DNA of 43,021 nt from positions 1 through 43,021 of the forward strand of contig JACIWR010000003.1 of NCBI GenBank assembly GCA_014360845.1. The letters run 5' to 3'. Source of the DNA: Anaerolineae bacterium. GTDB lineage: Bacteria > Chloroflexota > Anaerolineae > JACIWR01. Below, in pieces: positions 3,378-39,704 of this stretch (position 1 is the first letter of the stretch; every line of letters begins with the position of its first letter). The notes under the pieces were generated by a model, which saw only the letters and a program-made list of their open reading frames with translations, was not told the origin of the DNA and did not search any database. The translations under genes were made by a program, and so were the position numbers.

Positions 3378-5327
3378 TTATTGACACTCCACATGTACAT
3401 AACCAAGGCGTACAGCCCCCTCTTGACCGTTAACATTGCGTACCGCCAGACGGCTTCCATCCGACAAGCGATATAGTCCCACTGTGACTTGATAGCGCCC
3501 CGGTGCCATGTCATCCGGCAACGATAGCACCCGCCGGTCGAGCACTTCCCGGCCCACCGCCCACACGCTGGTGGGAGCCAGGCCATTCTGCGGGATACCA
3601 TCATTCTGGGCCAGAGGCGGAGCGCCCGGCAGGCCCAGGTGGACAAAGGCGTTATACTCTTCGTCCAGGGGAGTCAGAGCACGCCAGCGCAGTGGTAAGG
3701 CCATCACTTCGCCAGGGTGGAGATGGGCATCCACCACAGGGTAGCGCAGCTCCACCCACCCACCAAAGTAAGCTGTCCCCTCCTCTGGCCCGACACCCGG
3801 CGTCTGGAAGTGCGGAGCCAGATACAAAGCCAGGTGGTGACGCCCGTACCAGTTGCTCTCCACCTTATACGCCTCGGCCTCCAGCCAGGAAGCAGAAAGG
3901 TTATGAGCATCTTCCGCCGCTATGCGATAGCTGAGCAGCCAGAGTCTGGGATGGGTAGCGAAGATGCTCTCCAACTCCGGGCCTACGGTTTGGGGGGTGA
4001 AGTAGGCCCGGTAGAAACTGAGCTGGTGCTGGGGATAGTAACTGAGCAGGTAACCCACCTGCCAGACGTAAACGTAGACGAGAGCATCGTCGGGTTGGGC
4101 CAAGGCGCTGAGATGAGCCATAGCCGGTCGCGGGTCTTCCAGTTCATCAACTGCTGCGGTGTAGACGCGCCCCAGCGCGGGAATCCACAGGACGATGACC
4201 ACGAGCAGCAGAACCAGCATGGCGGCCTTGGGCCCCCGCCGCCCCAGAGCCTCCAACCCACGAGCCATCAGCAAATAGAAAACCGGTCCCAAATACAGCA
4301 GAAAACGGGGGAAGAAAAAGGGGTAAGCTCTCTGCAAAAAATACGCAGCCGTCAGGGGTATGACGACCCAGGTGAGGAGAAAGGCCCGGCGCTCACCCGT
4401 CAAAACACCAACCACAGCCAAAGCCGTCATGGCACTGCTGGCTATCAAAACGCCGTAGCTCTCATCCCCTGTCCCCCAGCAGAACTCGCCCAGCACCCGG
4501 CTGAGATAGGCCCACCACGATAGGGCCTCCCCCCGCGACAAGCCCATCACCCCGCGCACGGTGGTGCCGAACACGATGAGCGTCCACGGCAGAAGAAGCA
4601 AAGCCACCGCTCCCACCGCCAGAGTCCATTGTCCCAGATGCGCGAGCGCACGATGGCGCACCGGGCTCCTGCGGATCAAGGACAAACCCTCGCATCCCAG
4701 CAGCCACACACCCTGCCACACCACCAGCAGACCCAGATAGTAATGCGCGCCGATGGCCGCCGCCGTACTCAGGACGTAAAGGACCCACCAGCAAATAGCC
4801 TCACTACGCGAAGGTTGCCCGCTGTTGAAATATCCCGTTCCTCGCCCCCAGGCGTAGACGGACAGCAATCCGCAAACCGTGGCCCACACATAACCCTTAG
4901 CTTCGCGGGAGTAGTACACCTGCATCGGCGACAGAGCGACGAGTAGCGCGACCAGCAAAGCCGTGCGCCTGCTCCCCAGCCAGCGACCCACCATCCCGGT
5001 GAGAGCCACCACCAACACCCCCAACCCCACCGAGAGAAAGCGCAGAGCAAAGGGAGAACTGCCGCCCAGTTCCTTCCACACCCCCAAGGCCAGGCGATAG
5101 ACCGGCGGGTCAGTGTCATTGGTGGTGCGCGTCTCGCTGACCAGGTCCGACAAGCTCTGGTGAGCAAAGTACACGCTATTGCCCTCATCCCACCATAAAG
5201 GACGGTGGTCCAGTTGCAACACCCGCAGGGCAAAGGCCATCAACAGAATGAGCAACAGGATCACCGTCCACCGGTTGTCTCGCTTCAACTCCACCCCCAC
5301 GGTCCACTCCCGCTCAGGCTTGGACAC
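3378..5327 (-). CDS. GT39/ArnT-like (PMT_2 type) membrane glycosyltransferase.
   Basis: 649-aa ORF with a GTG start. It has an N-terminal TM helix followed by LWWDEGNSVYFA (DE motif in the first loop), about 10 further TM helices, and a C-terminal soluble domain homologous to those of the 1..696 and 711..3374 products. Confidence 0.7.
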   Translation of the reverse strand: MSKPEREWTVGVELKRDNRWTVILLLILLMAFALRVLQLDHRPLWWDEGNSVYFAHQSLSDLVSETRTTNDTDPPVYRLALGVWKELGGSSPFALRFLSVGLGVLVVALTGMVGRWLGSRRTALLVALLVALSPMQVYYSREAKGYVWATVCGLLSVYAWGRGTGYFNSGQPSRSEAICWWVLYVLSTAAAIGAHYYLGLLVVWQGVWLLGCEGLSLIRRSPVRHRALAHLGQWTLAVGAVALLLLPWTLIVFGTTVRGVMGLSRGEALSWWAYLSRVLGEFCWGTGDESYGVLIASSAMTALAVVGVLTGERRAFLLTWVVIPLTAAYFLQRAYPFFFPRFLLYLGPVFYLLMARGLEALGRRGPKAAMLVLLLVVIVLWIPALGRVYTAAVDELEDPRPAMAHLSALAQPDDALVYVYVWQVGYLLSYYPQHQLSFYRAYFTPQTVGPELESIFATHPRLWLLSYRIAAEDAHNLSASWLEAEAYKVESNWYGRHHLALYLAPHFQTPGVGPEEGTAYFGGWVELRYPVVDAHLHPGEVMALPLRWRALTPLDEEYNAFVHLGLPGAPPLAQNDGIPQNGLAPTSVWAVGREVLDRRVLSLPDDMAPGRYQVTVGLYRLSDGSRLAVRNVNGQEGAVRLGYVHVECQ

Positions 5328-5729: not shown

Positions 5730-8700
5730 TTACCCGGAACCGACCCCTTGAAGAGTCACGGCCGTCTTAAACCTTGCGTACTCCTTCTCGAGCTGGGCCA
5801 GTTTTTCCTCTGCGCCCGTCAGTTCTCCCTGTTGCCCCATGCATTCCAAATCAAGACATAAGGCCGAGAGTCTCGTGGCCCCCAAAGTGGCAGCGCTCCC
5901 TTTCAGCGTGTGGGCCGCGCGCCGCATCAGCTCCGGGTCCCCTTGTGCCACCGCCTGCCGCAACTCTGCTAAGAGCCGGACCGCGTCCATCTGGAAGGCT
6001 TCCACCAGCTCGGCTATAAACAGCGGAGCATCCTGCCCCATCACAGCCCGAAACTTTTCCAGCACCGTTGGATCTATGACGGCACCAGGTAAATCCGCTG
6101 GTGGCGCTGGCGATTCATGGGGCACTGCTGTCGGCCCGCGTCCGGATGCTTTCCCTCCCCGCGGCTGACACCGTTCCAGGGCCTGCACCAGCTCCTCTAC
6201 CCGCACCGGCTTGCTGATGTAGTCATCCATCCCCGCCTCCAGATACCGCTCCCGGTCCCCGGACAAGGCGTGTGCCGTCATGGCGATGATCCGCGGTCGC
6301 CCATTGCTCCCCCAAATCTCGTGAATCCGCCGCGTCGCCTCCACACCGTCCATCTCCGGCATCTGCACATCCATCAACACCACGTCATAGGACTGCCGCC
6401 CCAGCGCGTCCAGCACCTCCAGCCCATTGGCCGCCACGTCCGCCCGATACCCCAGCCGCTCCAGGATGCGCAGCGCCACCTTCTGGTTCACCACGTTGTC
6501 CTCCGCCAGCAAAATGCGCAGCGGATGCCGCTGCCCCAACTCCCGATCGAAACGCTCTTTCATCGCCCCCGCTCCCATCCGCACCGTCACCCCACCAAAC
6601 ACTCCCATCAAAACCTCATAAAACTGCCCCGCCTTCACCGGCTTCGTCATGTAGGCCGTGAACAGCCCTTCCTCACCTACCCGCTCCCCCAGAGAGCTCA
6701 ACATCACCAACGGCAACTCCGCTCCACCCCGCTCCTTCCGTATCTCCTGCGCCAAAGTCACCCCGTCCATCTCCGGCATGTGCATGTCCAGAATGCCTGC
6801 GTCGAAATGTTCGCCCCGTCGCACCCACTCCAGCGCCTGAACAGCGGAGCCCGTAGCGCGAGGCAACATCCCCCACGCCGCAACCTGTCGGGTGAGAATA
6901 ATGCGGTTCGTCTCGTGGTCGTCCACGATCAGCACCCGCTTGCCCGCCAGCACCGGCTGCGGCCCCCGCAGATAGACCTTCCGATGGCCCGGCACCGCCT
7001 CCGCCACAATGGTGAAGTGGAAAGTGGAACCCTTCCCTACCTCACTCTCCACCCACATCTCTCCACCCATCATCTCCGCCAACCGCTTGCTGATGGCCAA
7101 CCCCAAACCCGTGCCCCCGTACTTCCGCGTCGTCGAGGTGTCCACCTGACTGAAGGACTGGAACAAGCGCCCCATCCGCTCCGCCGGTATCCCGATCCCC
7201 GTGTCCCGCACCGCAAAATGCACCTCGTGCGCCTCCCCACCCAGAGCACGACTCTCCACCAACACCACTACCTCGCCCTTCTCCGTGAACTTCACCGCGT
7301 TGCTCAGCAGGTTCACCAGTATCTGCCGCACCCGCGTCGCATCACCCACTATCGCCCCAGGCACATCATCCTCGATGATGTACGCCAGCTCCAAACCCTT
7401 CTCCGCCGCCCCAGGCGCGATCAGGTCCAGGCTCTCCTCCACGCACAGCCGCACCTCGAAGGGCTGCTCCTCCAACTCCATCTTCCCCGCTTCGATCTTG
7501 GAAAAGTCCAGGATGTCGTTGATCAAGGCCAGCAAAGCCTCACCGCTGCGGCGGATGGTCTCCGCATACTCCGCCTGCTCCTCCGTCAACTCCGTATCCA
7601 GCAGCAGGCCCGTCATCCCTATCACCGCGTTCAACGGCGTCCGTATCTCGTGGCTCATATTGGCCAGAAAGGCCGACTTGGCCCGTGTCGCCTCTTCCGC
7701 CGCCTCATACAACCGCGCGTGTTCGATGACCACCGCCAACTGATCGGCCAGGCCGCCCAGCAGACGCACTTCCTCGTCCGCGATCACCGCTCGCTCGTCT
7801 CGCCGATAACCCACTTCCAGAACGCCTATCGTCTTCCCCCGCAGCACCAGGGGCACGAAAGCGCGTACCAAATCGGCGTGTCCCTCCCGCTCAAATATCT
7901 CGCGATCCAGGCGTTCATCCCAACCGTCAATGACCTCAATCCGTCCACTGCGGGCCACATCCATGAGGATGTCACCGACCAGATCATCCAGCGAGCGCAC
8001 CAGTCCTTCCAATCCCTGCGCCTGGCCCGCCGCCCGCACCACCCGGCTCTCGTTGGCGTCTTCGTCAATCAGGTGCAGGGCGATGTGGGTAAAGGCCATC
8101 TCCTGCGAAAGAGCGGCGATCAGCGCATCAAGCACCTGGTTCAAATCCAGGGTGCCGGAGATAGCGCGGCTCATTTTGTGCAAGACTTGCAACTCGCGTA
8201 CGCGAGCCTCAGCCTGTTGGCGGGCCTTCTGCGTCTCCTCAAACAGGCGGGAGCGCTCAATGAGCAAGGCCAGGCTGCTGGCCAGAGTGCTGAGAAGCTG
8301 TTGGTCATTTTCGTCGAAAGCATTGAGCTCAGGGCTCTCAACATTGAGCACGCCGATGACCTGGGAACCGACCATCAGCGGGACACAAAGCTCAGAACGT
8401 ATGTCTGGAATGCCCTCGTGATAACGGGGGTCCTCCCGCACATCGGGTACGAGGAGGGGCTTGCCATGCTGGGCTACCCAGCCGGTGATACCTTCACCCA
8501 AGGGCATGCGCAGGTTCTGGACCGCCTCCAGGGGATAGCCGACGCTGGCCTTCATCTGCAGCCAACCGCTTTCCCGGTCCAGCAGCATGAGGACCACGTG
8601 GGTACCCTCCAATTCAGCGGCCAGGGCCTCCGCCGCGGCCTGCAACGTCTCGTCCAGGCTGACTCCAAAAGCCGCAGCCATGCTCACCTCGTTGAGCAAC

Positions 8701-11700
8701 TGGAATTCGCGCATCCGGCGCTGGGTCTCCTCCAGCAAGCGAGCCTGCTCGATGCGCATGGCCAGGCTGGTGGCCAAGGTGCTGAGCAACCGCTGGTCGT
8801 CCTCTGTGAAGGCGTTGAACTGCGAGCTCTCGACGTTAACCGTGCCGATCACCCGCGAGCCGACGAGCAGAGGCACGCACAGCTCGGACACGGTGCTCCC
8901 GATCAAGCCCAGATAGCGGGGGTCCAGGCGCACATCCGGCACCAGCACGGGCTCACCATGGCGCACTACCCAGCCGGTGATGCCCTGGCTGATGGGCCAC
9001 TCCACCTCCGGGATTTCATCCGGGAACTCACCGGCGGTGGCGCAGGCTTTCTGCCGCAAGACGCCCTTCTCCGCATCCAGCAACGCAATCCCCACGTGAT
9101 CGCATTTCAGCCAATTGAGGATGGCCTCCGCAGAGGCCTGCAAAGCCTCACTCAGGGTAACCCCGGAGACCGCGGCCATGCTGACATCGTTGAGCACCTG
9201 CAGCTCACGCACCCGTTGGCGTGTCTCCTCGAAAAGTCGGGCGTTCTCAATGGCCATGGCCGCCTGCTGACCAAAAGCCCGGGCCAACCCGGCCGTCTCG
9301 GAAGAGTAAAAGGCGGGCTCGCCCTTGTCAATAGTGAGCAGGCCCACGACTTCGTTTTTGCTCAACAGCGGTACCCCGAGCCAGGAGCAAACCCAGCTCG
9401 TGCCGGCCAAACCGCGGAATCTGCTGTCTTGTTGGGCATCGGCGAGGATGAGAGGTCGCCGGGTGCGCTCCAGTTCCCGGAAAAGCTCATCTTCCTGCGT
9501 GAGGACCTCGAGGCCGATGACCGCCTCTGGATTCTCGAAGCCCCTTGCCGCGGAGATGTGCATCACATCCCCTTCCCGTAGCCACAGGGCAGCGGTGTCA
9601 TAGGGGATCACCCGCTCCAGTTGCTCCAGGATCAGGCGCAACACCGCCTCCAGGTCCAGGGTGGAGCTCACCGCTCGACCGATCTCGGATAGAGCTTCCA
9701 ACTGAGTGGCGCGCCGCCGCGCCTCCTCGAAGAGCCGGGCGTTCTCCACTGCCACGCCGACCTGCTGACCAATGGCAACCAACAGGTCCCACTCGCCCTC
9801 AGAAACGGGATGGGGGGCGGTATCCAACAAGCCCAGGATGCCCAACACGCGGTCCTTGTGGATGATAGGCGTGCCCACGTACGAGAGAATGCCCACCTCC
9901 AGCAACGCACTCACGTCCAGTGGCGCGCCGGCCCGCAGGTCTGCCACTGAGAGAGAGGCCCCTTGTTGATACACATAATCGCACAAAGTGCCCCCCAGGC
10001 CCTCCGCCTCCAGATGATCGAGCAGGGCCACGGGCAAGCCAGCGTAACTGGAAAGCACCAACTCGCCGCTGCGTTCATCAATCAAGCTGATTAGCCCACC
10101 GGCGAAACCCAGGGCATGAATTATGCGGGAGAGGGCTTCATCGAGCAAATCCTGCAACTCCAGCGAACCGGACAGGGCCTGAGCCAGGGCGTTCAAGGTG
10201 GCCAGTTCCAGATTGCGGCGCTGCAAATACTCCTCGGCCTGCTTACGCTCGGTGATGTCCTCTCCTGAGCCGAGAGTGCCCACGATACGCCCCTCATTGT
10301 CCCTCAGCACGGTGTTATGCCAGGCGATGATTCGTTCCTCGCCCTCGCGGGTCAGAACCGGGTTTTCAAAATATTCGGCAGATTCGATCTCCCCGGCAAT
10401 CAGCTTCTGGAAAACACCCTTCACCTCATCGCGCACCCGGTCCGGCAAGAAATTCTCGAACCAGTTCTTGCCCACAATCTCATCCTGCTCATAGCCCAAT
10501 ATCTCGCATCCGCGCTTGTTGATGAGCGTCACTTCTCCCGCGGTATTGAGGGCTACGAACATAACCCCGGCTATGTCCAGATACTGCTGGGCCCTATCCC
10601 GCTCCGCGCGTAGAGCCTCCTCCGCTTGCTTGCGCTCGGTAATATCGCGCATTATCCCTATGGCGTGCCATTTGCCTCGCAGGTTCACCGCCGAGAGCGA
10701 CAACTCCAGAGGTATCTCTACTCCGTCCTTCCTGATGGCCGGCAGTTCCAGGGTTTTGCCCACGGCCTTACCTTGTCCCGTGAGCCGGAATCTCTCAAAA
10801 GCTTCCAAATGCATGGCGAGAAGTCGCTCGGGAGCCAGGAGTTGATGCATATTCTTGCCCATTACTTCCGCTGCCGTATAGCCGAAGATCTTCTCCGCGG
10901 CCTCGTTCCAAAAAGTGATGTTGCCATCGTGATCTATCATAACGATGCCATCTTGAGCCGAAGAGGTGATAGAGCGGAGAGTCTCCTCCCTTTCACGTAG
11001 GGCTTCTTCCATTCTCTTGCGCTCGGTGATGTCCAGTTGAGCACACACGCCCATAATGACCCGGCCCTGCGCATCGCGGAGGGGGTATTCATTGACCAGC
11101 ACGTGACAGGTGGAGCCATCGGCCCGCACATCCTCGTACTCCAAATCCTGGAAGGACTGACCGGCAAAGACGGCGGCTATGTTCTTGCGGGTGACCTCAG
11201 CGTTCTCCTCTTTGACCATGAGCTCATACATGGTCTTGCCCACGGCTTCCTCGGCAGTCCACCCGTATAGCTCCTCGCAAGCGCGATTCCAGTGCAAAAT
11301 TCTGCCCTCGCGATCGAAGGTCCAGCAGCAGGCCGGTATGCCGTCGAAAAGGGTGCGGAAGTGCTCTTCGCGTTCCTGCAGGGCCCTCTCAGCCTGCTTG
11401 CGCTCGGTAATATCGGTGATAACGGCTAGGACCCCTTCAAAGTGGCCCTCGGCGTCCGTCAGCGGTGAGGCTGAGACAATGACGTTCACCTGAGAGCCGT
11501 CCTTGCGATAGAGCACAGTCTCATAGTGTTCCCTCTCCCCCTTCTGCCTGCGCTGAGTCAACTGGCGATAACGGGCGAACTCCTCAGGGTCTGTCAACTG
11601 CGACAGGTTCATGCCCACCAGTTCCTGCGGGGTGTATCCCAGCATCTGGGCAAAAGCCGTATTGGCGAACGTGATGTTCTCCTCCGGGTCCACAATGCCG

Positions 11701-12188
11701 ATACCGGTGAACACGGCCTCGGCCACAGCATTGTAAAGGGTATTGCTCTTCCACAAGGCGACATCGCGGTCCACCCGCTCCGTGACGTCCTCGATCACGG
11801 TGATGGTGCCGATGATGCGCCCATCCTCAACCAGCGGAGCAATGCGTGCGCTCTGAGCCATCAGCTTCCGGTCGGCGCTGAAATCCGAGGACATCGGCAG
11901 AAGATAGCGATGGAAGAGTTGCGACAACACCCGCACCTGCCCCTTCAGGGCATCGCGATAATAGCGGTCCAACCCACGGCTGACGAGCTCCGGGTATACC
12001 TCCAGCAAATTGCGCCCCACGACCTCGCTCGCCCGGTAGCCCGTGTGGACCTCCAGCCAGCGATTCCAGCCGCGGATGTTCAGCTCGGCATCCGTAATCA
12101 GCAAACCCTGGTCAGCAAAATCGTTCAACCATCGCAGTGTTGCTGTTGCGTAATCCGTCATAGCCCTTACCTCTACCATCCTGTTCAT
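5730..12188 (-). CDS. Hybrid sensor histidine kinase with 5 PAS, 5 GAF, HisKA, HATPase_c, 2 receiver and Hpt domains.
   Basis: 2152 aa. PAS modules each end in a DITERK(Q/R)AEEAL-like junction. GAF modules end in ENARL(F/Y)EE. H-box is [15 protein letters not shown]-box is [21 protein letters not shown]. Receivers are [21 protein letters not shown] and [22 protein letters not shown]. Hpt motif is [14 protein letters not shown]. The ATG overlaps the CheC stop (ATGA). Confidence 0.95.
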
Positions 12189-12826
12189 GAACTACCTGTA
12201 CCGGCCGGCTCTCCCTCCTGAGTGCTGGCCCAATTCTCAATAGCCTGCATCAAACGCTCCAGCGAGGTGACCCCCAAGACGATGATAAGATACCCCGCCA
12301 CCGCGCTCTCACTCAAATGAAAATCCATACGAACAACCAGCGCATAGCACAATTCTTCTTCGCCAATCACCAGCGAAGAGAGCAGAGTCTCCAAATCCTC
12401 CTGATGCACGCGCGGCACCGAAAAGGACACCGTCACTTGGAGCAGGTTGCCAAACATGCCCAGGCAAGCGTTGAGCACAATGTTGCCCACCTCGGCCAGC
12501 ACTTCCCGCCCCGAGGCCGCCAGCGGTTGTACGACCACACGCCCCTGCAGCAATAGCTGCACCAGGTGAGCCGCACTTTCGTAATCCAGCACCAACAGCG
12601 CATCGCCAGCCATAGGGCCGGTGAAAATCTGATGCACCGTGGCCAATTCATCGCAGGTCAAACCACACAAGGCATCCCGCATCCCATCTATGGGACGTAT
12701 GTCCACCTGGGGCGTACCAAGAATCACTCGCTGTCCGGTCAAATCTGAAAGCGAGGCCGCAGTGCGCCCGAAGGCGATATTGACCAGTTCCGTCAAGGCG
12801 TCCTTTTGTCGTTCAGTTATCAGCAT
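12185..12826 (-). CDS. cheC: CheC-family CheY-P phosphatase.
   Basis: Both CheC active-site motifs (D/S-x3-E-x2-N-x22-P) can be counted exactly: D-ALT-E-LV-N-(22 aa)-P and E-VLA-E-VG-N-(22 aa)-P. I place the start at the internal ATG (MLITERQKD), overlapping the cheY stop by 14 nt. The listed ORF start at 12880 lies inside cheY. Confidence 0.8.
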
Positions 12827-13190
12827 CTTCCACCTCGCTGAGTATACTGCTGACCACGTTCCGCACCTGCTCACCGGCAAAGGGCTTGGTGATGTAGCCC
12901 CTCGCGCCAGCGGCCTCCACCATGGCCCGGGTCGAGTTCTGGATGTCCGCCGTGGCGATGATCACCCGCGCTTCTTGATCCATCTCGCGCAGTTTTCTCA
13001 GGACCTCCAGGCCATACATCCCGCTCATGGTCAAGTCCAGCAGAACCAAATCAGGCTGGTGCAGAGCATACAACTCCAGCGCCGTCAGGCCCTCGGGCGC
13101 TTCAATGATTTGGTGTCCCAACGGTTCCAACGCCTGGCGCAACATGCGCCGCGATAAACTGGAATCATCTACAATCAGGATTTTAGCCAC
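12813..13190 (-). CDS. cheY: Single-domain CheY-like response regulator.
   Basis: 125 aa. Motifs KILIVDDS, DLVLLDLTMSGMYG and ATADI..YITKPF. GTG start preceded by GGGAGGAG. Confidence 0.9.
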   Translation of the reverse strand: MAKILIVDDSSLSRRMLRQALEPLGHQIIEAPEGLTALELYALHQPDLVLLDLTMSGMYGLEVLRKLREMDQEARVIIATADIQNSTRAMVEAAGARGYITKPFAGEQVRNVVSSILSEVEDADN

Positions 13191-13244: not shown

Positions 13245-14051
13245 TTATCGCATTCGCTCATCTACGTCCTCCTCAGCCGGGCTCGGGTCATCGCGCCCGC
13301 GCTCCGGAGGCCGCAAGAATTTAATCTGAAGGTCCCGAAAGCAGACGCTGGACCCATCCCAGGCGCGCAATCCGACCCCGCCATGGGTGTATTCGCTGTG
13401 CTGCGCCTGGAGTACGACCTCGCCATCCACATAGGCGGTGAAAGTGTTGCCCTCTACGCGGAGGCGGATTTCCCGCTCCGCACCGTGCCATTCATAGTCG
13501 TTCGCCGCCCAGGCCCTGGCAAAAGGAGACTGTTCATTACCATTCACGATCCGCCGATACAGGAAAGCCCCTTTGCCGTAGCCGGGATCGTACTGGAAGA
13601 CATAGGCGTTGGCCCTCTCGTAATTCGTAGCTCGGAAGTAAACTCCGTAGCCGTTACCCTGGGTCAGCAGAGCTTTGAAGGTAATCTCGTAGTCGGTCCA
13701 GTTCTCCGCACCGTAGAAGCTGCGCTGTTCCCCTCCCGGTCCGGTGCAGTAACTATCCCCCTCCACACGCCACTTCTTTCCGGCGACTACCTGCCATCCA
13801 CTCCAATCAGCGGGCTGCGGAGTGGGCGTCGGGGTCGGGGTAGGGGTGAGGCTAACCGCCGTGGCTTGAGAACCGGGCGAGGCCCACTGACTGGCGGGTA
13901 ATTCCCCCTGCAATGCACTGTAAACATGTCCAATGCTTGGCCCCACGGCATAGGCCGTCCCGCCCACCACCACCCCCACCAGGAGGATGATCAGCGCGTA
14001 TTCCACCAGGCCCTGACCCGACTGCGATTGCCATTCTGTCCCTTTCATCAT
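13245..14051 (-). CDS. Flp-type (type IVb) prepilin-like N-terminus fused through a PT linker to a DUF1080/LamG-like jelly-roll domain.
   Basis: N-terminus is SGQGLVEYALIILLVGVVVGG (G/xxxxEY Flp motif plus hydrophobic helix). Linker is TPTPTPTPTPQP. The C-terminal ~185 aa read W..W.V..G..W.VEGD..NWTDYEI.F...NGYGVYFRA..VFQYDP..GVGLRAW..V.F.DLQI. ATG at 14051 is preceded by AAAGGAG. The listed start at 14060 is GTG. Confidence 0.7.
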   Translation of the reverse strand: MMKGTEWQSQSGQGLVEYALIILLVGVVVGGTAYAVGPSIGHVYSALQGELPASQWASPGSQATAVSLTPTPTPTPTPQPADWSGWQVVAGKKWRVEGDSYCTGPGGEQRSFYGAENWTDYEITFKALLTQGNGYGVYFRATNYERANAYVFQYDPGYGKGAFLYRRIVNGNEQSPFARAWAANDYEWHGAEREIRLRVEGNTFTAYVDGEVVLQAQHSEYTHGGVGLRAWDGSSVCFRDLQIKFLRPPERGRDDPSPAEEDVDERMR

Positions 14052-14132
14052 CGGTTGCACTCCTTTGACTCCAAAGGCGACGCACCTCCACCAGGTACGT
14101 GATGCGTACAGGGGTACATCGTCTTCCCTTCA

Positions 14133-15041
14133 TCAGTGGCAAACCGCCGGTCGCATCGTGGCGGTAAACGAGGTATTCACGTGATGACCTCTCAGGATAT
14201 GCTTCGCCAACGCCGGGTTACTCCTGAGGTCAAGCACCAGCCCGGCCTGATCGCTCTCCTCGAAAGCCCGCAGTATCGAGGAGTTTATGTCATTTCTGAT
14301 CCGCACCTGGCTGACATTGAGAGCCGGCCCCGTCATGGTGGCCTGCCGGTCACTAATCCGCAGGGTGTTAAAACTCACTTTTCCCACCAGGACCGGGTCC
14401 TTCCCCAGAGACGCGATCTGCAAGGACACGGGGGTGGGGTCCACCTCAAACTCGAAGCCGTCGGCGGATTCGGTGTAACGTCCGGTGAGACGGATAGCTC
14501 CCAAACCGATGAAATGCCAGGTCATGTAACCGCCCCTCCTCACCAGCGGGTCTCGTGGGCCATAATCCCCAGAGTTCACGTAGGCCAAACCGAATAGCAG
14601 CGCCTCGCTGAACCCGTCTCCATCTCGATCCAGCCAAAGCAGTCGCCCATCAAAACTGAAGCCAGAGCACTGCGTCACCGAGGTAGCGGTGGGCGCGGGC
14701 GTGGGCGTCGGTGTAGCAGTGGGTGGCAAAGGGGGCACCGTGGGTATAATCACCGGCGTGCCGGCCGGGGGCAACGGGGGCAGGGTAGGTGTCGGCGTAG
14801 GCGTGGCCGGGCTGAGCGTCGGCGTAGCCGTCGGCGTCGGACTGGCCATAGCGACCGGCGTGACCTCCTCCGCTGCGGGCGCGATCACCCCGGAGAGGGC
14901 AGCGTGAGCTTCGCTGAACACCCCTCCCACCTGCGGCCCCATGGCCACCAACACGCCACTGGTGACCACGCTGACCAGCAGCAGCATCAATGCGACTTCC
15001 ACCACCCCCTGGCCTTTTTCACACATCCACTTCCTCTGCAT
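14133..15041 (-). CDS. Second Flp-like prepilin N-terminus with a long PT-rich linker and a ~190-aa C-terminal domain of unknown function.
   Basis: N-terminus is EKGQGVVEVALMLLLVSVVTSGVLVAMG. The linker is about 60 aa of P/T/A-rich sequence. The C-terminal domain has no motif I recognise. Confidence 0.6.
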   Translation of the reverse strand: MQRKWMCEKGQGVVEVALMLLLVSVVTSGVLVAMGPQVGGVFSEAHAALSGVIAPAAEEVTPVAMASPTPTATPTLSPATPTPTPTLPPLPPAGTPVIIPTVPPLPPTATPTPTPAPTATSVTQCSGFSFDGRLLWLDRDGDGFSEALLFGLAYVNSGDYGPRDPLVRRGGYMTWHFIGLGAIRLTGRYTESADGFEFEVDPTPVSLQIASLGKDPVLVGKVSFNTLRISDRQATMTGPALNVSQVRIRNDINSSILRAFEESDQAGLVLDLRSNPALAKHILRGHHVNTSFTATMRPAVCH

Positions 15042-15060: not shown

Positions 15061-16290
15061 CTATGGACAAGCTTGTAGACCCTCTTGAGCGCTTTGCAGC
15101 GTGGGGTCCAGCACCAAAGCCTGTTGGAACATCAATTTCGCCTGCTCGCACTGTCCCATCTGGACCTGGCTCCACCCCAGTCCAGCATAGGCCAAGGCGC
15201 TTTCGGGATCGAAGTATATGGCCTCCTGGAACAAGGTCGCGGCCTCTGCATAACGCTCCAGATGATAGTATGACCAGCCCAGGAGAGGGTAGGTGATGCG
15301 CTGCACCGGGCTGTTGCGGGTGAGGGCCAGGGCTTCGTTAAACTGCGCCACCGCCTGATCGTAGTCCCCGGCCTGGTAGAAACACTGCCCCAGGTAAGCG
15401 TAGAGCAACGCGTCGTCCGGCTGACGTAACAACAAACTCCGAAATTGATACGAAGCCTGATCGTAATTGCCCAGGGCGTAATACGTCAGACCCAGATACT
15501 CCTGGACCTGGGGGTCATCCGGCTTCATCTCCAGAGCCTTGCGCAGGGGCTGTAGGGCCTCTTCCGGATAGCCCGCCTCGTAGTAAGCCCGCCCCATGAA
15601 CTCAAGAGAGTCGGCATCGGTCGGATTGAGGGTCACGGCCTGCTTCAGCAGCGAGATGGCCGTCTCGTAATCCTTCTGCCAGAACTTGACCGTCCCCAGA
15701 TAGCCGTAAGCCTCGGCCAGGTTGGGGTCCAGTTCGAGGGCCTTCTGGAGGTATGCGGCGGATTCCGCATATTGGCGGAGATAATAATAGGCCTTGCCCA
15801 GCCCCAGATAAGCGTCGCCGCGCTGCGGGTCCAGCTCCACCGCGCGGCGGAAATAAGGGATGGCCGCTGCATCTTGTTCCAGATGATAATAGCACCACCC
15901 AATACGGGTTTGCACCAGCGGTTGATTCGGCATCAGCTCCGCCGCCCGGAGGTAGGCGGCCAGCGCCGTCTCGTACTGCTGATGATAGTAAGCCTGCTCA
16001 CCCTGGCGGAAGTAGTAGTTACCGTCCTTGCGGAAACGGGTCACGTAGATCAGCGTGCCGACCATTACCACCGCTACTCCCAGAGCGGCCAAGAGAATCC
16101 TTCGCAGCGTCCTCTGGGATAGACGAACTCCTCTCTTCTTCCCCGGTACGACTGCCTTGCCCGGTGAGGCCTCGTACACTGTCTCTGACGAAGCCTGCTC
16201 CACCTGCTGCACTGCTGTCAGACGAGCCAAACAGTTGGGACACACCACCTCATCGCCTTTGAGTGCCGCACCACATTCTGGACAATTCAT
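15061..16290 (-). CDS. Zinc-ribbon, single TM helix and TPR-repeat protein, possibly TadD-like.
   Basis: N-terminus MNCPECGAALKGDEVVCPNCLARL. TM helix ILLAALGVAVVMVGTLIYV. About 9 TPR-like 34-aa repeats (A..Y...L.L.P....A...LG..Y). AAGGAG lies 9 nt upstream of the ATG. Confidence 0.75.
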   Translation of the reverse strand: MNCPECGAALKGDEVVCPNCLARLTAVQQVEQASSETVYEASPGKAVVPGKKRGVRLSQRTLRRILLAALGVAVVMVGTLIYVTRFRKDGNYYFRQGEQAYYHQQYETALAAYLRAAELMPNQPLVQTRIGWCYYHLEQDAAAIPYFRRAVELDPQRGDAYLGLGKAYYYLRQYAESAAYLQKALELDPNLAEAYGYLGTVKFWQKDYETAISLLKQAVTLNPTDADSLEFMGRAYYEAGYPEEALQPLRKALEMKPDDPQVQEYLGLTYYALGNYDQASYQFRSLLLRQPDDALLYAYLGQCFYQAGDYDQAVAQFNEALALTRNSPVQRITYPLLGWSYYHLERYAEAATLFQEAIYFDPESALAYAGLGWSQVQMGQCEQAKLMFQQALVLDPTLQSAQEGLQACP

Positions 16291-16315: not shown

Positions 16316-17503
16316 TTATCGAACGGATTTAGCTACCCGCTTCGGAGAGAGCCGACCGCTGAGCTGCTGAGCCAATTGCTGCAACACCTGCGCTGCCGGA
16401 GTCTGGGGCTGACCTATCACCAGCGGCACTCCGCGGTTGATAGCCTCCACAAAGGCCACCCGTTCATGGGGAATCACCGCAGTCAGAGGCATGTGCAAAG
16501 CGGCCTCGATGTTCTTCTGCGGCAGTCCGCCCTGAGCGAAAGGCCAATTCAAGACCGCTACCGTCTTCTGGGGCGGATATTCCAGCGCCTGGAAGACGTC
16601 CAGGGCCGCCGTGGTCACTTTCAGACCAGCGATCTCCGGCGTCAACAGCAACACGATCACATCAGATTGATCCAGCGCGGTCAGTGTGACCTCATCGAAA
16701 CGAGAAGGCGTATCTACGACAATGTACCGATACTTGGGTCGCAGCATGTCCAGTATGGTATCCACCAGCGTAGGCGTGATTTTGTCAGCCAGCTCTGGCG
16801 CAGGAGGAGCCGGCAACACGCATACCCCGGAATCATGGCGGACGAAAGCCCCCTCCACCAGGGCATCATCTATCACATCGGCCCCCCGGTCTCCCAGGTC
16901 GGCCAGGCTGTGCTTAGGCCGCAAATCCAGCATCAGCGCGCAGTGCCCAGACTCCAAAGCCAGGTCCAACAAAGGCACGTCGTCCTGCGCCAATTGGGCC
17001 AGAGCCACAGCCAGATTCACCGCCACCGAAGTGACCCCTACCCCGCCCCGCAGACTGAATACGGAGATCACTTTGGCCGGTGAGGCAACTCCCGTCTGCT
17101 CGGCAGCGGACTGTACGGCCTTCATGCGCGCCAACAGGACTTTGATCCGCATCTCCAGTTCTGTGGGGTCCACTGGCTTCACCAGGTAATCGTCCGCGCC
17201 GGCCTGGAAACCATCCACCTTGGCGCTGACCCCGCCCCTGGAGGTGAGCATAATCACCGGAGTGTGGATTGTGGCGGGATTCTGGCGCAACCAGCGGCAG
17301 AATTGATACCCGTCCAGCCCCGGCATGACCACATCGGAGATGACCAGATCGGGGAAGACTGCATCTGGTGCACTCAACTTGGCCATGGCTTCCTCCGCAC
17401 TGAAAGCCACGTCCACCTGGAACCCGGAGGCCATCAACCGGCTCTCTATCATCTTAGCCGAGAACTTGCTATCATCAACGACAAGAATCCGCGGCTTTCC
17501 CAT
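16316..17503 (-). CDS. Response-regulator receiver fused to a CpaE/TadZ-type (MinD/ParA-like) ATPase domain.
   Basis: Receiver motifs PRILVVDDSKF, LVISDVVMPGLDG and YLVKP. These are followed by ISVFSLRGGVGVTSVAVNLA (deviant Walker A) and VVDTP. The ATG at 17503 is preceded by AGGAGGAAGAGG. The listed start at 17527 adds 8 aa. Confidence 0.8.
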   Translation of the reverse strand: MGKPRILVVDDSKFSAKMIESRLMASGFQVDVAFSAEEAMAKLSAPDAVFPDLVISDVVMPGLDGYQFCRWLRQNPATIHTPVIMLTSRGGVSAKVDGFQAGADDYLVKPVDPTELEMRIKVLLARMKAVQSAAEQTGVASPAKVISVFSLRGGVGVTSVAVNLAVALAQLAQDDVPLLDLALESGHCALMLDLRPKHSLADLGDRGADVIDDALVEGAFVRHDSGVCVLPAPPAPELADKITPTLVDTILDMLRPKYRYIVVDTPSRFDEVTLTALDQSDVIVLLLTPEIAGLKVTTAALDVFQALEYPPQKTVAVLNWPFAQGGLPQKNIEAALHMPLTAVIPHERVAFVEAINRGVPLVIGQPQTPAAQVLQQLAQQLSGRLSPKRVAKSVR

Positions 17504-17643
17504 ACACCTCTTCCTCCTGCCCCCCATACCACGCAGTTTAATATTAACGTTCGTAACAGATGTAGTCCTTGCAATATTATAGTGGAAAACCCCGTCCTTT
17601 TGGGTAAAAGCCTCGTAAAAGGCTGTAAATTCGTCGTAAAATA

Positions 17644-23088: not shown

Positions 23089-23739
23089 ATGGGTAAACAC
23101 TGGGAAATCAGTCGCACCGGCCCATTGGGCGTGTTCCTGGCGCTGCTGGGCTATTGGGGGGCCTGGGTAGACCATAAGACCGCGGCGTTGGTGCTCAGCG
23201 GCCTGGACATGGGGGAGTACGTCAAGTTTCTACCGGAGGTGCGCGAGGGGAGCGTGGTCGTGCTGCGAGAGCTTTTCTACCTGCCGCCGCTGGCCGCGGC
23301 GCTCTGCCTGGCTCTACTGGTCGGCTGGCTGTGGCCACGATATTCGCTCACAGCGCGCGTGCTCATGCTGGGCCTGGCCGCGGGGCTCTGTCTCATCGTC
23401 CTGCCCCCTTACCCCTTCGTGCTGCACGCTCTCTCCTCAGCGGAGTTCCGGGGGCAGTTCATCATGTCCGTGTTGTGCTTATTGGGCGTTGCCGCGGCTC
23501 CACTCTACCGCCGCCTGAGGGACCGGACGGCCCAATTGCTGCTGGCGATGCTCGCCGGCCTGGGCACGCTCCCCGCTATAGCCCAGTTCTGCGCCATCCG
23601 CCCGGCCCTGGAGCGGGCTTACGGCTGGCCGTTGCAAATCGGCTGGGGCCTGTGGGTGATGGTGGTGGGCTTTGCTTTCGTCATCGTCGCCACCATAAAG
23701 GGTGAGGTGCGACGCACTTCAGAAGCGCGTCGCACCTAA
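23089..23739 (+). CDS. Polytopic membrane protein of unknown function.
   Basis: About 6 hydrophobic helices. The ATG at 23089 is preceded by AGGAG. It sits where ABC ATPase genes would be expected. Its 3' end overlaps the convergent hdrA stop by 4 nt. Confidence 0.55.
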   Translation: MGKHWEISRTGPLGVFLALLGYWGAWVDHKTAALVLSGLDMGEYVKFLPEVREGSVVVLRELFYLPPLAAALCLALLVGWLWPRYSLTARVLMLGLAAGLCLIVLPPYPFVLHALSSAEFRGQFIMSVLCLLGVAAAPLYRRLRDRTAQLLLAMLAGLGTLPAIAQFCAIRPALERAYGWPLQIGWGLWVMVVGFAFVIVATIKGEVRRTSEARRT

Positions 23740-26309
23740 ATCAGCACCCGCACGCTACTGCTACGACAGGCGGCGCACATCCGCTCTTCGTTTCTCGCCT
23801 TTTCCGCGCTGTAGTCCTCCCGCCATTCGTGCCCGCAGCGCATACAGCGCAAGAGAGCCGGCGTCGGCTCTTTCAGCTTCCAGACCTGGCTGCTGACCGG
23901 GACTTTCGCCTCTCTCAGCACCTCCATCGTCCGTGCCACTTCCTCGGCGGTGACATGCGCGCGCAGTTCCTCCACCGCGCGCATAATTTGAGCCCAGCGC
24001 TGACCCTCGGCAGCGGAGCACCACTCCAGTTGCAGGCGCTCCGGGCGCAGGCCGTGCTTCTCCAAGCCCTCCCACAGAGCATCCACGCGGCGCACGGTGT
24101 TGCGGTTAGCGTTGATGTAGTGGCAATCGGCGTAGTGGCAGCCGCTGACCAGCACCACCGGCGCGCCCTGGCGGAAGGCATACCACACGAAATCGGCAGC
24201 GACCCGCCCCGAGCACATCGTCCTGATGATGCGCGCGTTAGGCGGGTATTCCATGCGGCCCGTGCCCGCCGTATCGGCCCCGGCGTAGGAGCACCAGTTG
24301 CAGGCAAAGGTGACAATGGTGCTCAGCGGATCGCGCTCCAGGGCAGCATCAATCTGGGCGAAGATGGCCTGATCGCTGAAATGGCGCATTTCGATGGCGT
24401 CAAAGGGGCACTCGGCGGCACAGGTGCCGCAGCCGGCGCAGGCGGCGGTGATGACCTGCGCCACCTGTTTCTTCTCCCACTTGATGGCCGAGTAAGGACA
24501 CACCTCGGCACAGCGCCCGCACTGCCTGCACTTAGCCTCGTCCACCACAGCGGTGATGGCCTCGACCTGGATTTTGCTTCTGCTGAGCAACACCTCGGCC
24601 CGCGCCGCCGCTGCCGAAGCCTGGGTCACGCTGTCTTTCACGTCCTTGGGACTTTCGGCACATCCGGCCAGGAAAACGCCTTTGGTCGTCGCGTCCACCG
24701 GTTTGAGCTTGGGGTGCGCCTCCATGAAGAAACCTTCGGGCGTGCGCGACAGGGTGAGCAATTGCTTAACCAGTTCACTATCGCCGCGCGGGATAGCCCC
24801 GATGGACAGCACCAGCATGTCCAGTTCGTACTCCTCGATGCGCCCCGCCGTGGTGTTCTCCACGAAAACCCTGAGATTGCGCGTCTGCGGGTCCTCCACC
24901 ACCTCGCCGGGCAGGCCACGCACGTAACGCACGCCCGCCGCCTTGCTGCGCATGAACAGGTCCTCGAAGCCCTTGCCAAAGGCACGGATGTCCATGTAGA
25001 ACACCGTGATGTCAGTATCGGGGTAGTGGTCCTTGAGCAGCAAGCTATCTTTGATGGTGTTCATACAACAGATGTTGGAGCAGTAGGGATTGCCCCGCGC
25101 CGGATTGCTCGTCCGCGAGCCGACGCATTGCACAAACCCGATGCGTTGGGGAGTCTGACCGTCGGTCAGGCGGACGAAGTGTCCGCCGGTGGGGCCACCG
25201 GCGCTGATCAGCCGCTCGAACTCCAGGCTGGTGATCACGTTCTCGAAGCGGGTGTAACCGTACTCGTCCAGGGCGGTGGGGTCGTACACGTCCATGCCGG
25301 TGGCGACGATGATGGCCCCCACGTTCAACTCCACGATTTCATCCTGCATGTCGAAGTCAATGCACTTTTTGTCGCAGACCTCGATGCACTTCCCACAGGC
25401 GATGGGGTTATCGCCCAGGCAGGCTTCGATGTCCACCACATAAGCCGAGGGCACCGCCTGGGGAAAGGGGATGTAAATAGCGCGGCGCGTGCTCAACCCC
25501 TGCTGGAACTCGTCCGGGCGGACGATGGGGCAGACCTTGACGCACTCGCCGCAGGCCGTGCATTCCTTCTCATCCACGTAACGCGCCTTCTTGCGCACCC
25601 GCACCCGGAAGTTGCCCACGTAGCCGGATACGTCCTCGACCTCGCTGTAGGCCAGCAGTTCAATGTTGGGATGCCGACCGGCATCCATCATCTTGGGGCC
25701 GAGGATTCATATGCTACAGTCCATGGTGGGATAGGTCTTATCCAGCATGGCCATGATGCCACCGATGGAGGGTTGCTTCTCCACCAGGTACACCTGATGC
25801 CCGGCGTCGGCCAGGTCCAGCGCGGCCTGGATGCCCGCCACCCCGCCGCCGATGACCAGCGCCGCGTCAGTGACGGGCAACTGCTCCTCGTCCTGGGGAT
25901 ACAGCCAGTGCGCCCGGGCCACGGCCACGCGCACGATGTCCTGTGCCTTGCGGGTGGCCGCTTTCCTGTCGTGCAGCGTGACCCAGGAGCAGTGCTCTCT
26001 GATGTTGGCCATCTCCAGCAGGTACGGGTTCAGCCCCACTTGCTGGACGCAAGCGCGGAAGGTCGGCTCGTGCAGGCGCGGCGAGCAGGAAGCGATGACC
26101 ACGCGGTTGAGGTTGTGCTCCACGATCGCCCGCCTGATCTCGGCCTGGCCCGGATCGGAGCAGGTGTACTTGTTGCGCACGGCGACGGCCACATCGGGCA
26201 GGGTGGCCGCGTAGTCCTTCACTGCCTCAGTATCCACGCTGCCGGCGATGTTCAGCCCGCAGTCGCAGACGAAAACGCCGATTCGCAGATCATCTTTCAC
26301 CAAAATCAT
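23736..26309 (-). CDS. hdrA: HdrA-like flavoprotein fused to an MvhD domain and a C-terminal zinc ribbon. One gene with an in-frame UGA (25707-25709), read as selenocysteine.
   Basis: ORFs 25707..26309 and 23736..25691 are in the same frame (618 nt apart). The junction reads [36 protein letters not shown], matching the HdrA motif DKTFPT.DCS.C-IL.PKM..HPNI. The N-terminus [37 protein letters not shown] is HdrA-type. The MvhD part reads [27 protein letters not shown]. The tail reads CMRCGH..CAACR. The ATG at 26309 is preceded by GAGGAGG. Confidence 0.85.
25669..25686 (-). promoter_or_regulatory. Candidate bacterial SECIS hairpin downstream of the in-frame UGA.
   Basis: The mRNA forms GGAUGCC-GGUC-GGCAUCC (7-bp perfect stem). 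The stem starts 20 nt after the UGA. The apical loop GGUC lies at +31 to +34 from the U of the UGA. Confidence 0.6.
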
Positions 26310-27364: not shown

Positions 27365-28201
27365 TTATTCCAACGACCGAGCCACTTTCAGCAATTCTTC
27401 CAGAGAGTAAGGGCCGGACAGGAAGAAAGTCACGCCATCCTCCTGCCATAGAAGATTGGTCAACACAAAATCCCCTTCACCCCACGGCCCTGGCCCGCTA
27501 TAACCCGACTCAGCCCACTCAGCCACCACTCCAGGTTTCAACTCCACAGTCCGCGTGTCCTGGGGTATAGATTCTCTTGGTGCTCCCCATACGCACCTGT
27601 AAGCATCCAAAAGGAAGAGAGGAGAAGAACCCGTCTCTGTCTCTAGCAGTTTCAGGTCTGAAGCCCCTGTAGCTTGCACGAGATAGCTGACGATCACGAG
27701 ATTCCGCCCATCTTCCGTTTGCACGACCTGGAAGACTTGCTGCACCGGCTGCTGTACGCCAGCAACATCCTTCCACTCCTCTATCCCTGGTGGCAGATAA
27801 GCAGGCACGCGAATTGGAAAACTCACTCTCGCTTGAGCTTGCTCCCTTGAGAGCAGAGGAGCCGGCATGGGCGCTTCCCCTTCGAAAACGACAACGGGAC
27901 GGGAGGTCAAGCCCGTTGCCCCAATGCGGGCCACTATCTCCCACAGCTCCCGGGCTGCTTGGACGCCTACCGTGCCAGCGAAGGTCAGGACGAATATCAT
28001 CAGCATGGTCGCTACAACCTGTATGGAGTAGTGCAAACTACCCCATCGAAAGGCGACCCTGCGTAATAGCGAAGTCTCCCACCGCTCTGCGGACATCTCC
28101 ATTCGTTCCAGTCGGGTCAGAAACGCACGAGATGGGTTGATACTCCTCCAATAACGAGGAATATCTCGCCGAAGTATTCCCTCGAAATCATCAGTCATCA
28201 T
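27365..28201 (-). CDS. Membrane-anchored anti-sigma factor candidate with a DUF4367-like C-terminus.
   Basis: It lies directly downstream of the ECF sigma gene. It has a single TM helix (VVATMLMIFVLTFAGTVGV). The C-terminus reads LLWQEDGVTFFLSGPYSLEELLKVARSLE. The ATG at 28201 is preceded by AAGGAGG. The listed start is 28255. Confidence 0.6.
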   Translation of the reverse strand: MMTDDFEGILRRDIPRYWRSINPSRAFLTRLERMEMSAERWETSLLRRVAFRWGSLHYSIQVVATMLMIFVLTFAGTVGVQAARELWEIVARIGATGLTSRPVVVFEGEAPMPAPLLSREQAQARVSFPIRVPAYLPPGIEEWKDVAGVQQPVQQVFQVVQTEDGRNLVIVSYLVQATGASDLKLLETETGSSPLFLLDAYRCVWGAPRESIPQDTRTVELKPGVVAEWAESGYSGPGPWGEGDFVLTNLLWQEDGVTFFLSGPYSLEELLKVARSLE

Positions 28202-28268
28202 CTCTCGTCCCTCCTTGCTTTCGCAATCGTGTATAGGTAGTACCACCTTCACCATTGCCCTTTTCCTG

Positions 28269-28799: not shown

Positions 28800-28993
28800 C
28801 TGCTTGAATCACACGTGTTCAATGTAATCTATCGGACATCCGGTCTACTATAAAGACGAACGGCTAGGGCTTCTTGCTCACCCGCCCTATTCCAAATAGA
28901 TTGAGCCTTCGATGCCGTCTGTATAGTCTTCGGGATATTTTTCTTGCTTGGGCGACCCCGGTGCGTTAGGGAAATGTGGTCATTCTTCAGCTA

Positions 28994-30121: not shown

Positions 30122-30151
30122 GAGTTCCTCTTCCCTCAACCTCCCGCAGGT

Positions 30152-32229: not shown

Positions 32230-32240
32230 TGTGCGATCTC

Positions 32241-37265: not shown

Positions 37266-37283
37266 TTCTATGCTCCACTCATC

Positions 37284-39702: not shown

Positions 39703-39704
39703 CA

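Follow-up and report, generated by a model that had tools for sequence, protein, structure and literature searches.

Candidate modular Flp/Tad-class pilins with a lectin-like module in a signalling operon of an Anaerolineae bacterium

The stretch of DNA analysed here (the window) comprises 43,021 nt from an Anaerolineae bacterium (Chloroflexota; JACIWR01), assembly GCA_014360845.1, contig JACIWR010000003.1, positions 1 to 43,021 of the forward strand. Two adjacent minus-strand genes, henceforth referred to as A and B, encode products that are probably modular type IVc (Flp/Tad-class) pilins, in which a leader and a bare hydrophobic helix are coupled through a Pro/Thr-rich linker to a large C-terminal module. 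Both proteins have this architecture, the family of A is homologous to Flp pilins, and the module of A has a CBM66-like fold. Synteny around the two genes is conserved, and module swapping is observed among their relatives.

Gene layout and pilin-type N-termini of A and B

The two genes and their parts are located as follows.

13245..14051, minus strand: gene A, candidate modular Flp-type pilin with a CBM66-like/DUF1080 module, 268 aa
14016..14051, minus strand: leader peptide of A, aa 1-12, MMKGTEWQSQSG, with prepilin-peptidase cleavage predicted after Gly12
13914..14015, minus strand: pilin module of A, a single alpha-helix, mature residues 1-34, counterpart of a whole mature Tad pilin
13812..13913, minus strand: Pro/Thr-rich linker of A, aa 47-80 (~35 aa), disordered, ending TPTPTPTPTPQP
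13317..13808, minus strand: beta-sandwich module of A, aa 82-245, CBM66-like lectin fold inside Pfam DUF1080
14133..15041, minus strand: gene B, candidate modular Flp-type pilin with a novel C-terminal domain, 302 aa
14886..15041, minus strand: leader (aa 1-10) and pilin module (aa 11-52) of B
14670..14885, minus strand: Pro/Thr-rich linker of B, aa 53-124 (~70 aa), predicted local distance difference test score (pLDDT) <50
14136..14669, minus strand: C-terminal domain of B, aa 125-302, predicted all-beta, flanked by Cys125 and Cys301

The start of gene A was assigned to position 14051 because the ATG there is preceded, at a distance of 8 nt, by AGGAG, and because the protein is 268 aa long in its database copy (P0011); the entry in the open reading frame (ORF) list, 13245..14060, begins with a GTG and yields 271 aa. 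Gene B is preceded by a GAGAGG ribosome-binding site upstream of its ATG. After the leader, A continues as QGLVEYALIILLVGVVVGG with the predicted junction G/QGLVEY. The leader of B is MQRKWMCEKG, with cleavage predicted after Gly10 at the junction G/QGVVEV, and its pilin module runs QGVVEVALMLLLVSVV...GPQVGGVFSEAHAAL. Both proteins carry Gly at -1 and Glu at +5, followed by Tyr (A) or Val (B) at +6 and approximately 20 hydrophobic residues.

The predicted mature proteins contain 256 (A) and 292 (B) residues, including globular modules of 165-180 residues, and neither has the dimensions of an ordinary Flp/Fap pilin (mature 40-60 residues, no C-terminal domain). The layout of a modular pilin, namely a class III signal with a pilin module, a linker and a non-pilus module, is present in A and analogous in B. 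Conserved Cys pairs in both globular domains and the Pro/Thr linkers are extracytoplasmic features. The AlphaFold2 (AF2) model of A (mean pLDDT 85) consists of a helix (residues 11-46), a disordered segment (47-80; pLDDT 47-58, no secondary structure) and a beta-sandwich (82-245; pLDDT 92-99). A preliminary description of this DNA had proposed for both products a short leader, a Flp-like motif with E(Y/V), a hydrophobic helix and a PT-rich linker, and each of these was found on both minus-strand ORFs; of the sizes it gave, 302 aa is exact and 269 aa exceeds the true length of A by one residue.

The loose pattern G-x4-E-hydrophobic, scanned over all six frames of the window, matched only at the N-termini of A and B. 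By itself this is weak evidence, because, across 1.1 Mb of related loci, a chance match to the same pattern turns up roughly once every 40 kb. Judged from the N-terminal identity and family conservation described below, the motif of A and B is far beyond chance.

Since none of the pilin profiles in Pfam and NCBIfam was matched when A, B and their N-termini (64 aa) were scanned directly with hidden Markov models (HMMs) at E<=10, the heads were assessed at the family level. Family A comprises at least 212 homologous clusters, nearly all from Anaerolineae/Chloroflexota metagenome-assembled genomes, and its members are typically ~230 aa long, mostly without a long linker and with the domain straight after the helix. 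Among the best 120 of these clusters, G-x4-E-[YVFI] followed by a hydrophobic run was present in 106 (Tyr in 96), a type IVa leader, GF(T/S)L(I/V)E with PF07963, in only five, and the other nine were unclassified, mostly owing to truncated or miscalled starts. In an alignment of 92 family members (mean column identity 32%), Glu+5 is invariant and Gly-1 and Gln+1 are each at least 90% conserved. Scanned singly, 21 of the 92 matched Flp_Fap (best 1.5e-8) and four matched the archaeal Class_IIIsignal profile. Automatic annotation labels some members "Flp pilus assembly pilin Flp" and others "DUF1080 domain-containing protein".

The family A profile also matched the mature Tad pilins 8U1K (E=4.5e-4) and 8U2B (E=1.3e-3), from two Caulobacter strains, among PDB sequences. 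Profile positions 14-52 correspond to residues 3-41 of these 45-residue pilins, so the head of A is equivalent to nearly a whole Tad pilin. B is tied to Flp_Fap through family A only: the N-termini of A and B are 45% identical over 55 aa (E=5e-13), and hhalign aligned the B N-terminus with family A at a probability of 97.5% (E=8e-12). G10, Q11, G12 and E15 are invariant across seven sequences (B and its close relatives). The proposal that the N-termini are Flp-type is therefore supported for the family (21/92 with Flp_Fap; 8U1K and 8U2B) but not by A and B individually, which miss Flp_Fap and TadE; of the HMM families named at the outset (Flp_Fap, TadE, DUF1080), only DUF1080 was matched directly, by A. 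The IPR012902/N_methyl signature that defines the published modular-pilin set is absent from both proteins, as is a match to the TadE N-terminal profile.

In type IV pilins, Gly-1 is needed for cleavage, and Glu+5 is needed for subunit packing rather than for export. The conservation of both residues, and the occurrence of the lectin module on two prepilin classes, argue that the head is a pilin module rather than a generic anchor.

C-terminal modules of A and B

Residues 85-247 of the 271-aa form of A match PF06439 (DUF1080/3-keto-disaccharide hydrolase) with E=4e-10 and 40.5 bits against a cut-off of 26.8, and 91 of the 92 aligned family members match the same profile. The best Foldseek hits to the A module were 4B1M, 4AZZ and 4B1L, all CBM66 of the B. 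subtilis levanase SacC (E ~7e-12), with TM-scores of 0.83-0.85 and a root-mean-square deviation (rmsd) of 2.2 Å over 163 columns, so that the whole module is covered. The family A profile, searched against PDB sequences, likewise retrieved CBM66 (E=7e-16). The identity to CBM66 is only ~21%, which is too low to infer a ligand.

The Pfam name, with A above its cut-off, raises the alternative that A is a surface-tethered enzyme, a DUF1080-type 3-keto-glycoside hydrolase, eliminase or hydratase, which could be combined with any model of export. Foldseek did return 3-keto-glycoside eliminases/hydratases (9FBE, 8TDA, 8RR2) and GH16 enzymes at a probability of 1.0, but the DUF1080 enzymes align at TM-scores of only ~0.42-0.47 with rmsd values of 5-10 Å, and they are larger (~250 residues) than the A module, which at ~165 residues has the size of CBM66. 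Because the non-catalytic CBM66 is closer in both sequence and structure, A is more likely a lectin than an enzyme, and we consider the enzymatic alternative doubtful. CBM66 is appended to GH32 fructanases and binds the terminal fructose of levan, according to the accounts of Cuskin et al. 2012 given in PMC8715580 and PMC12678895; the A module, by contrast, sits on a pilin head. By analogy, it most likely binds a glycan such as fructan or another exopolysaccharide. The DUF1080/LamG jelly-roll that had been suggested for one of the two products is thus upheld and refined to a CBM66-like lectin fold.

Beyond the lectin module, the C-terminus of A (aa 246-268, window 13248-13316) forms a highly charged tail, RPPERGRDDPSPAEEDVDERMR. 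A similar tail, DRDRDDRDGQ, ends the distant A orthologues in related loci L091 (13149-14051) and L095-L097.

The other product had been described as lacking any recognisable motif, and this was borne out. B has no match in Pfam or NCBIfam, its domain has no sequence match in the PDB by profile search, and Foldseek comparison of its model with the PDB gave nothing below E=0.03, with TM-scores <0.25. The alignment and the structure model of B were both built on seven sequences only. The AF2 model predicts, at modest confidence, an all-beta domain (strands with pLDDT of ~60-79), and the invariant residues Cys125 and Cys301 bracket the domain. A search of the B profile against 1.84 billion representative proteins recovered only 16 clusters, of which four also have Flp-type heads and six have a hydrophobic N-terminus without the G-x4-E motif. 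The six close homologues of B (62-67% identity) always lie beside an A orthologue where the contig reaches that far. A divergent lamin-tail domain was considered as the identity of the B domain and ruled out (hhalign probability 0.2%). The B domain is flagged as a rare, uncharacterised extracellular fold.

Operon, conserved cassette and neighbouring genes

A and B belong to a compact minus-strand operon of seven genes, with gaps of 19-81 nt besides two gene overlaps. The transcription order is REC-ATPase, Zn-ribbon/TPR protein, B, A, CheY-like regulator, CheC/CheX phosphatase and hybrid kinase. No convincing internal terminator was found in the operon; a promoter/terminator scan gave counts equal to background, and no operon boundaries were obtained from it. 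The genes flanking A and B are listed in order of transcription.

16316..17527, minus strand: receiver (REC) domain plus MinD/ParA-type ATPase, CpaE/TadZ-like (hereafter REC-CpaE), 403 aa; Response_reg E=3e-26, AAA_31, ParA, CBP_BcsQ
15061..16290, minus strand: protein with Zn-ribbon, one transmembrane segment and TPR, 409 aa; TPR families, Zn_ribbon_3; a cassette-specific partner
12813..13190, minus strand: CheY-like single-domain response regulator, 54 nt downstream of A; Response_reg E=2.6e-26
12185..12880, minus strand: CheC/CheX-type phosphatase; CheC E=4e-8, CheX E=2e-6
5730..12188, minus strand: hybrid histidine kinase, last gene of the operon, 2152 aa; its start overlaps the CheC/CheX gene by 4 nt

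The product of 16316-17527 has the layout of TadZ/CpaE, a receiver-like domain followed by a MinD/ParA ATPase with the K/RGGXGXS/T consensus of TadZ. Its Walker-A-like segment SLRGGVGVTS is devoid of the P-loop lysine, and the RGGVGVT within it fits that consensus. Many of its homologues carry the JGI label "pilus assembly protein CpaE", and its receiver matches PleD at 1e-34. No cpaF gene adjoins the REC-CpaE gene in the window or in loci L001-L004 and L091-L093.

The four-gene core of REC-CpaE, TPR protein, B and A recurs in L001-L005 and L094, where the contig permits, and the TPR gene is kept between the REC-CpaE and Flp genes in L001-L005, L091 and L094-L097. A metagenome scan with the TPR protein yielded four informative loci only. 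Downstream of the core lies either the gene for a giant kinase or, in the case of L004, a complete complement of chemotaxis genes (CheR, MCP, CheW, CheY, CheA, CheD). The kinase orthologues in L001 and L003 contain PAS and GAF arrays, and the next gene in L003 encodes HATPase, REC and Hpt domains. In the distant clade formed by L091 and L095-L097, the slot of B holds a 221-aa protein in which a Flp_Fap head (E=1.5e-5) is joined to a lamin-tail domain, LTD (E=2e-18); the A orthologue follows, and then Hpt, REC, REC, GGDEF and PAS kinase genes. Since the B domain is unrelated to the lamin-tail domain, the module in this slot has been exchanged for another, with the head retained.

Relatives of A were found in 223 GTDB species genomes (one genome per species), mostly Chloroflexota with a few Planctomycetota and Caldisericota. 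Cultured Chloroflexus islandicus and Chloroflexus sp. MS-G, as well as Candidatus Oscillochloris and Chloroploca, are among the carriers. Candidatus Chloroploca asiatica B7-9 (L078:7874-10717) has three same-strand A paralogues in tandem, with a CarboxypepD_reg partner after the first.

Neighbours were clustered from the ORFs of the 80 best loci, and their recurrence was judged within 10 kb of the A relatives. The commonest is a 148-aa CarboxypepD_reg (PF13620) membrane protein, directly downstream of the A-family gene in 63 of the 80 loci (median gap 14 nt) and consisting of a cytoplasmic N-terminus, one transmembrane segment and CarboxypepD_reg (e.g. L061:10723-11169). The window lacks this partner and has the B and TPR genes in its place. 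A REC-CpaE-like neighbour occurs in 30/80 loci, usually directly upstream (median gap 19 nt), and a hybrid kinase lies nearby in 20/80. Type IVa leaders are carried by 4 of the 84 family A ORFs in these loci (Planctomycetota, Thermodesulfobacteriota). REC-CpaE neighbours accompany 32 of 79 Flp-type members versus none of the four with type IVa leaders, and the CarboxypepD_reg and kinase partners are likewise confined to Flp-type members. The type IVa-leader loci L010 and L075 adjoin PilB-like ATPases, and L082 adjoins another type IVa pilin. Leader class thus tracks the neighbouring machinery, in small numbers.

Directly downstream of the operon kinase, the first of two large minus-strand genes (window 3378-5327) encodes a 649-aa protein with a weak match to PMT_2 (GT-C glycosyltransferase, E=6e-4). 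The 887-aa product of the minus-strand gene beyond it (711-3374) has no Pfam match. A PMT_2 gene also lies in L004 (15930-15945), ~1.8 kb past the end of the chemotaxis cluster. The GT-C enzyme could be an O-glycosylator of the Pro/Thr linkers of A and B. A plus-strand ORF of 1154 aa (6117-9581) runs antisense to the giant kinase gene, and other long antisense ORFs are present; they are most likely by-products of the high G+C content and not genes.

An energy-metabolism block unrelated to A and B (23736-26309 and 31054-42190) encodes an MvhD-type protein, which bears the confusing Pfam name "FlpD", HdrD-like CCG-domain and Fe-S/flavin oxidoreductases (one of 1096 aa), a 2-oxoacid:ferredoxin oxidoreductase set and succinyl-CoA synthetase. 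On the minus strand at 27365-30139, a gene for an extracytoplasmic function (ECF) sigma factor (28269-28799) lies beside one for a 296-aa protein (27365-28255) with a faint DUF4367 match, which may, as a guess, be the anti-sigma factor of its neighbour. Adjoining this pair is a gene for a 381-aa transglutaminase-core protein with an N-terminal "New_glue" match.

Proposed mechanism, alternatives and known systems

A class III signal peptide would insert A and B into the membrane, where a TadV/CpaA-type prepilin peptidase would cut after the leader Gly. The remaining helix of ~35 residues, equivalent to a whole ordinary Tad pilin, could serve as a membrane holdfast or be packed into a filament by a Tad machine, A and B then being probably low-abundance or tip subunits. 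The flexible Pro/Thr linker would keep the C-terminal module clear of the filament or cell surface. A would act as a CBM66-like lectin for a glycan, and B would offer its disulfide-bracketed beta domain as a binder, in the slot that relatives fill with a lamin-tail domain. Signalling probably switches display or assembly, because A and B are co-transcribed with a phosphorylatable REC-CpaE ATPase, the TPR protein and phosphorelay/chemotaxis genes. In the solved Tad pilus, the C-terminal ends of the helices lie on the filament surface and the packing resembles that of archaeal pilins, which bear outer domains (PMC10710030); C-terminal cargo is therefore topologically acceptable. A minor or tip place is likelier than a homopolymer, given the bulky modules and long linkers, as was argued for S. 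sanguinis (PMC8179133). Far more speculatively, short-linker members of the family (helix plus beta-sandwich) might polymerise as major subunits in the way archaeal pilins do, and so bridge archaeal type IV pilins and bare-helix Tad pilins; Tad systems are thought to be archaeal in origin (PMC10710030).

Several observations weigh against a pilin assignment for A and B. Neither protein, nor either N-terminus, matched Flp_Fap, TadE, N_methyl, Class_IIIsignal or any NCBIfam profile at E<=10, and BLASTP against Caulobacter PilA gave a weak match for A (27% identity, E=3e-4, as a single comparison) and none for B. According to PMC10710030, a Tad pilin is a bare helix of 40-60 residues, and these pilins "entirely lack a C-terminal domain". 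Confidence in the model of B is low overall (mean pLDDT 52). Six distant relatives of B (P0134, P0136, P0138, P0140, P0142 and P0145; example N-terminus SGFFDYAPWVLF) are devoid of G-x4-E and keep the hydrophobic helix and the domain, including the GPxxGGxF...H segment and the Cys pair. It follows that the B domain can function on a plain membrane anchor, and these relatives look like a pilin head decaying into one.

The genomic context adds to these points. The 43-kb window contains no gene for a prepilin peptidase, CpaF/TadA or TadB/C and no short flp gene; the same genes do not recur within 10 kb of the 80 GTDB loci, and none occurs in L001-L010. Tad core and short flp genes are also absent beside three REC-CpaE homologues on long contigs. 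The sole nearby tie to a Tad machine is the cpaE/tadZ-like gene of the operon, and its receiver is canonical, retaining the phospho-acceptor residues (DD, D in ISD, T in MLTS, K in LVKP), unlike the atypical, non-phosphorylatable receiver of TadZ. A close REC-CpaE homologue in L092:10001-20815 (GCA_049324835.1, JBMOMT010000043.1) heads a chemotaxis cluster (CheR, MCP, CheW, GAF-MCP, CheY, CheB, CheA, MCP) with no pilin gene nearby. From this context and the canonical receiver, REC-CpaE may not be a Tad factor, and chemosensory signalling may have the phosphorylatable REC-MinD ATPase as one of its outputs. Anaerolineales genomes generally contain a separate, highly transcribed locus with flp/pilA, cpaB, cpaE, cpaF and tadBC (PMC4877987).

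The best-placed competing explanation, a credible one that we nevertheless hold to be unlikely, is surface display without a long pilus. A and B would be cut by the peptidase and anchored by the helix, or assembled into a short pseudopilus, with the Pro/Thr linkers spanning the wall or S-layer. For such display, the sugar-binding proteins that make up the archaeal (Sulfolobus) bindosome rely on class III signal peptides. Consistent with this, a Tad motor, platform and major flp gene are absent near more than 80 loci, linkers of 35-70 residues are long enough for a wall, the distant B relatives discussed above carry a plain hydrophobic anchor, and the commonest partner of family A (63/80 loci), the CarboxypepD_reg membrane protein, is not a pilus gene. 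An invariant Glu+5 is, however, hard to account for in a mere anchor. Most family members (~230 aa) place the domain directly after the helix, as in a pilin, rather than behind a long linker, and both the cpaE-like gene in the operon and the PilB-like ATPases adjoining type IVa-leader relatives speak against simple display. The preliminary description had left the choice between adhesins or minor pilins and proteins that merely use the prepilin route for export; the present data narrow this choice without separating its two sides. True pilin behaviour is favoured by the invariant Glu+5, by the presence of a cpaE/tadZ-like gene in the operon and by the relatives with type IVa leaders.

Very unlikely is the view that the N-termini are uncleaved signal anchors or Sec signals, Flp-like by composition, and A and B plain membrane-tethered proteins: the lack of direct Flp_Fap matches, the ease of chance matches to the loose pattern (~1 per 40 kb) and the loss of the motif in distant B relatives are outweighed by the conservation of Gly-1, Gln+1 and Glu+5 over 92 divergent sequences, the match of the family A profile to solved Tad pilins and of family members to Flp_Fap, the independent members with type IVa prepilin leaders, and the charged residue (Glu) at position five of a membrane helix, which would be unexpected in an anchor.

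If A and B are modular type IVc pilins, the modular-pilin idea comes to include a pilus class that was held to be without such domains, and the generalisation quoted above from PMC10710030 is challenged. A Flp head fused to a lectin-type module in 223 species genomes, mostly of the poorly studied Chloroflexota, indicates that module grafting operates in the type IVc class too, and its extent there has probably been underestimated. The steady pairing with a phosphorylatable CpaE/TadZ-like ATPase and chemotaxis/phosphorelay genes suggests a new chemosensory output and regulated adhesion. Rather more speculatively, an undescribed Chloroflexota system may exist in which phosphorylation of the REC-TadZ-like ATPase, through a chemosensory/phosphorelay pathway, switches the assembly or placement of Tad-class filaments built with Flp helices that carry interchangeable modules. 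Its cargo, just as tentatively, would be a CBM66-like lectin, a lamin-tail domain or the novel B domain, on subunits or tips. If true, this would be a signal-controlled, glycan-targeted pilus for adhesion or motility in filamentous bacteria. Tad-type adhesion has been proposed as a selective advantage in Anaerolineae (PMC4877987), which are abundant and poorly understood filament formers in digesters and sediments, and a lectin-bearing pilin provides a hypothesis for the adhesion target. Proteins of the A/B type are testable in cultured Chloroflexus. In full-text literature searches, neither Flp-class pilins bearing grafted modules nor DUF1080 on a pilin was found described, and the same holds for this cassette.

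Among known systems, the Sulfolobus bindosome resembles A and B in placing a prepilin-type signal on a carbohydrate-binding protein in a single-membrane cell. Its proteins are archaeal transporter substrate-binding proteins, whereas A is a bacterial lectin-type module encoded beside a cpaE-like gene; to our knowledge, polymerisation of the bindosome proteins has not been established. Caulobacter PilA (8U1K, 8U2B) shares with A the G/xxxxEY motif and a continuous, hydrophobic-then-polar helix of ~40 residues. Mature PilA has 45 residues, in contrast to 256 and 292 with globular modules for mature A and B.

The minor-pilin tip complexes TadE/F/G and KilL/M/N bear large, swappable, disulfide-rich C-terminal domains and were proposed to customise the tip (Herrou et al. 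2025, PMC12075869). They have a beta-stranded pilin fold and form a trio encoded in tad/kil loci, while A and B form a pair with Flp-type heads, no TadE match and a location away from tad core genes.

Modular pilins as such are known from S. sanguinis, where PilB carries a vWA module and PilC a ConA-like lectin module (Raynaud et al. 2021, PMC8179133; Shahin et al. 2023, PMC9934059), and these were proposed to be presented by the filament, probably at its tip (PMC8179133). The published survey of modular pilins used the N_methyl/IPR012902 signature only (PMC8179133). Like A and B, PilB and PilC combine a class III signal, a small pilin module, a linker and a grafted binding module, and the modules of PilC and A both belong to the ConA-like lectin/glucanase superfamily. 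PilB and PilC are type IVa proteins (N_methyl/IPR012902) with short linkers, whereas A and B have a Flp-type bare helix without a globular pilin core and far longer linkers, and their operon is not a pil locus but one that encodes a REC-CpaE-like ATPase together with signalling proteins.

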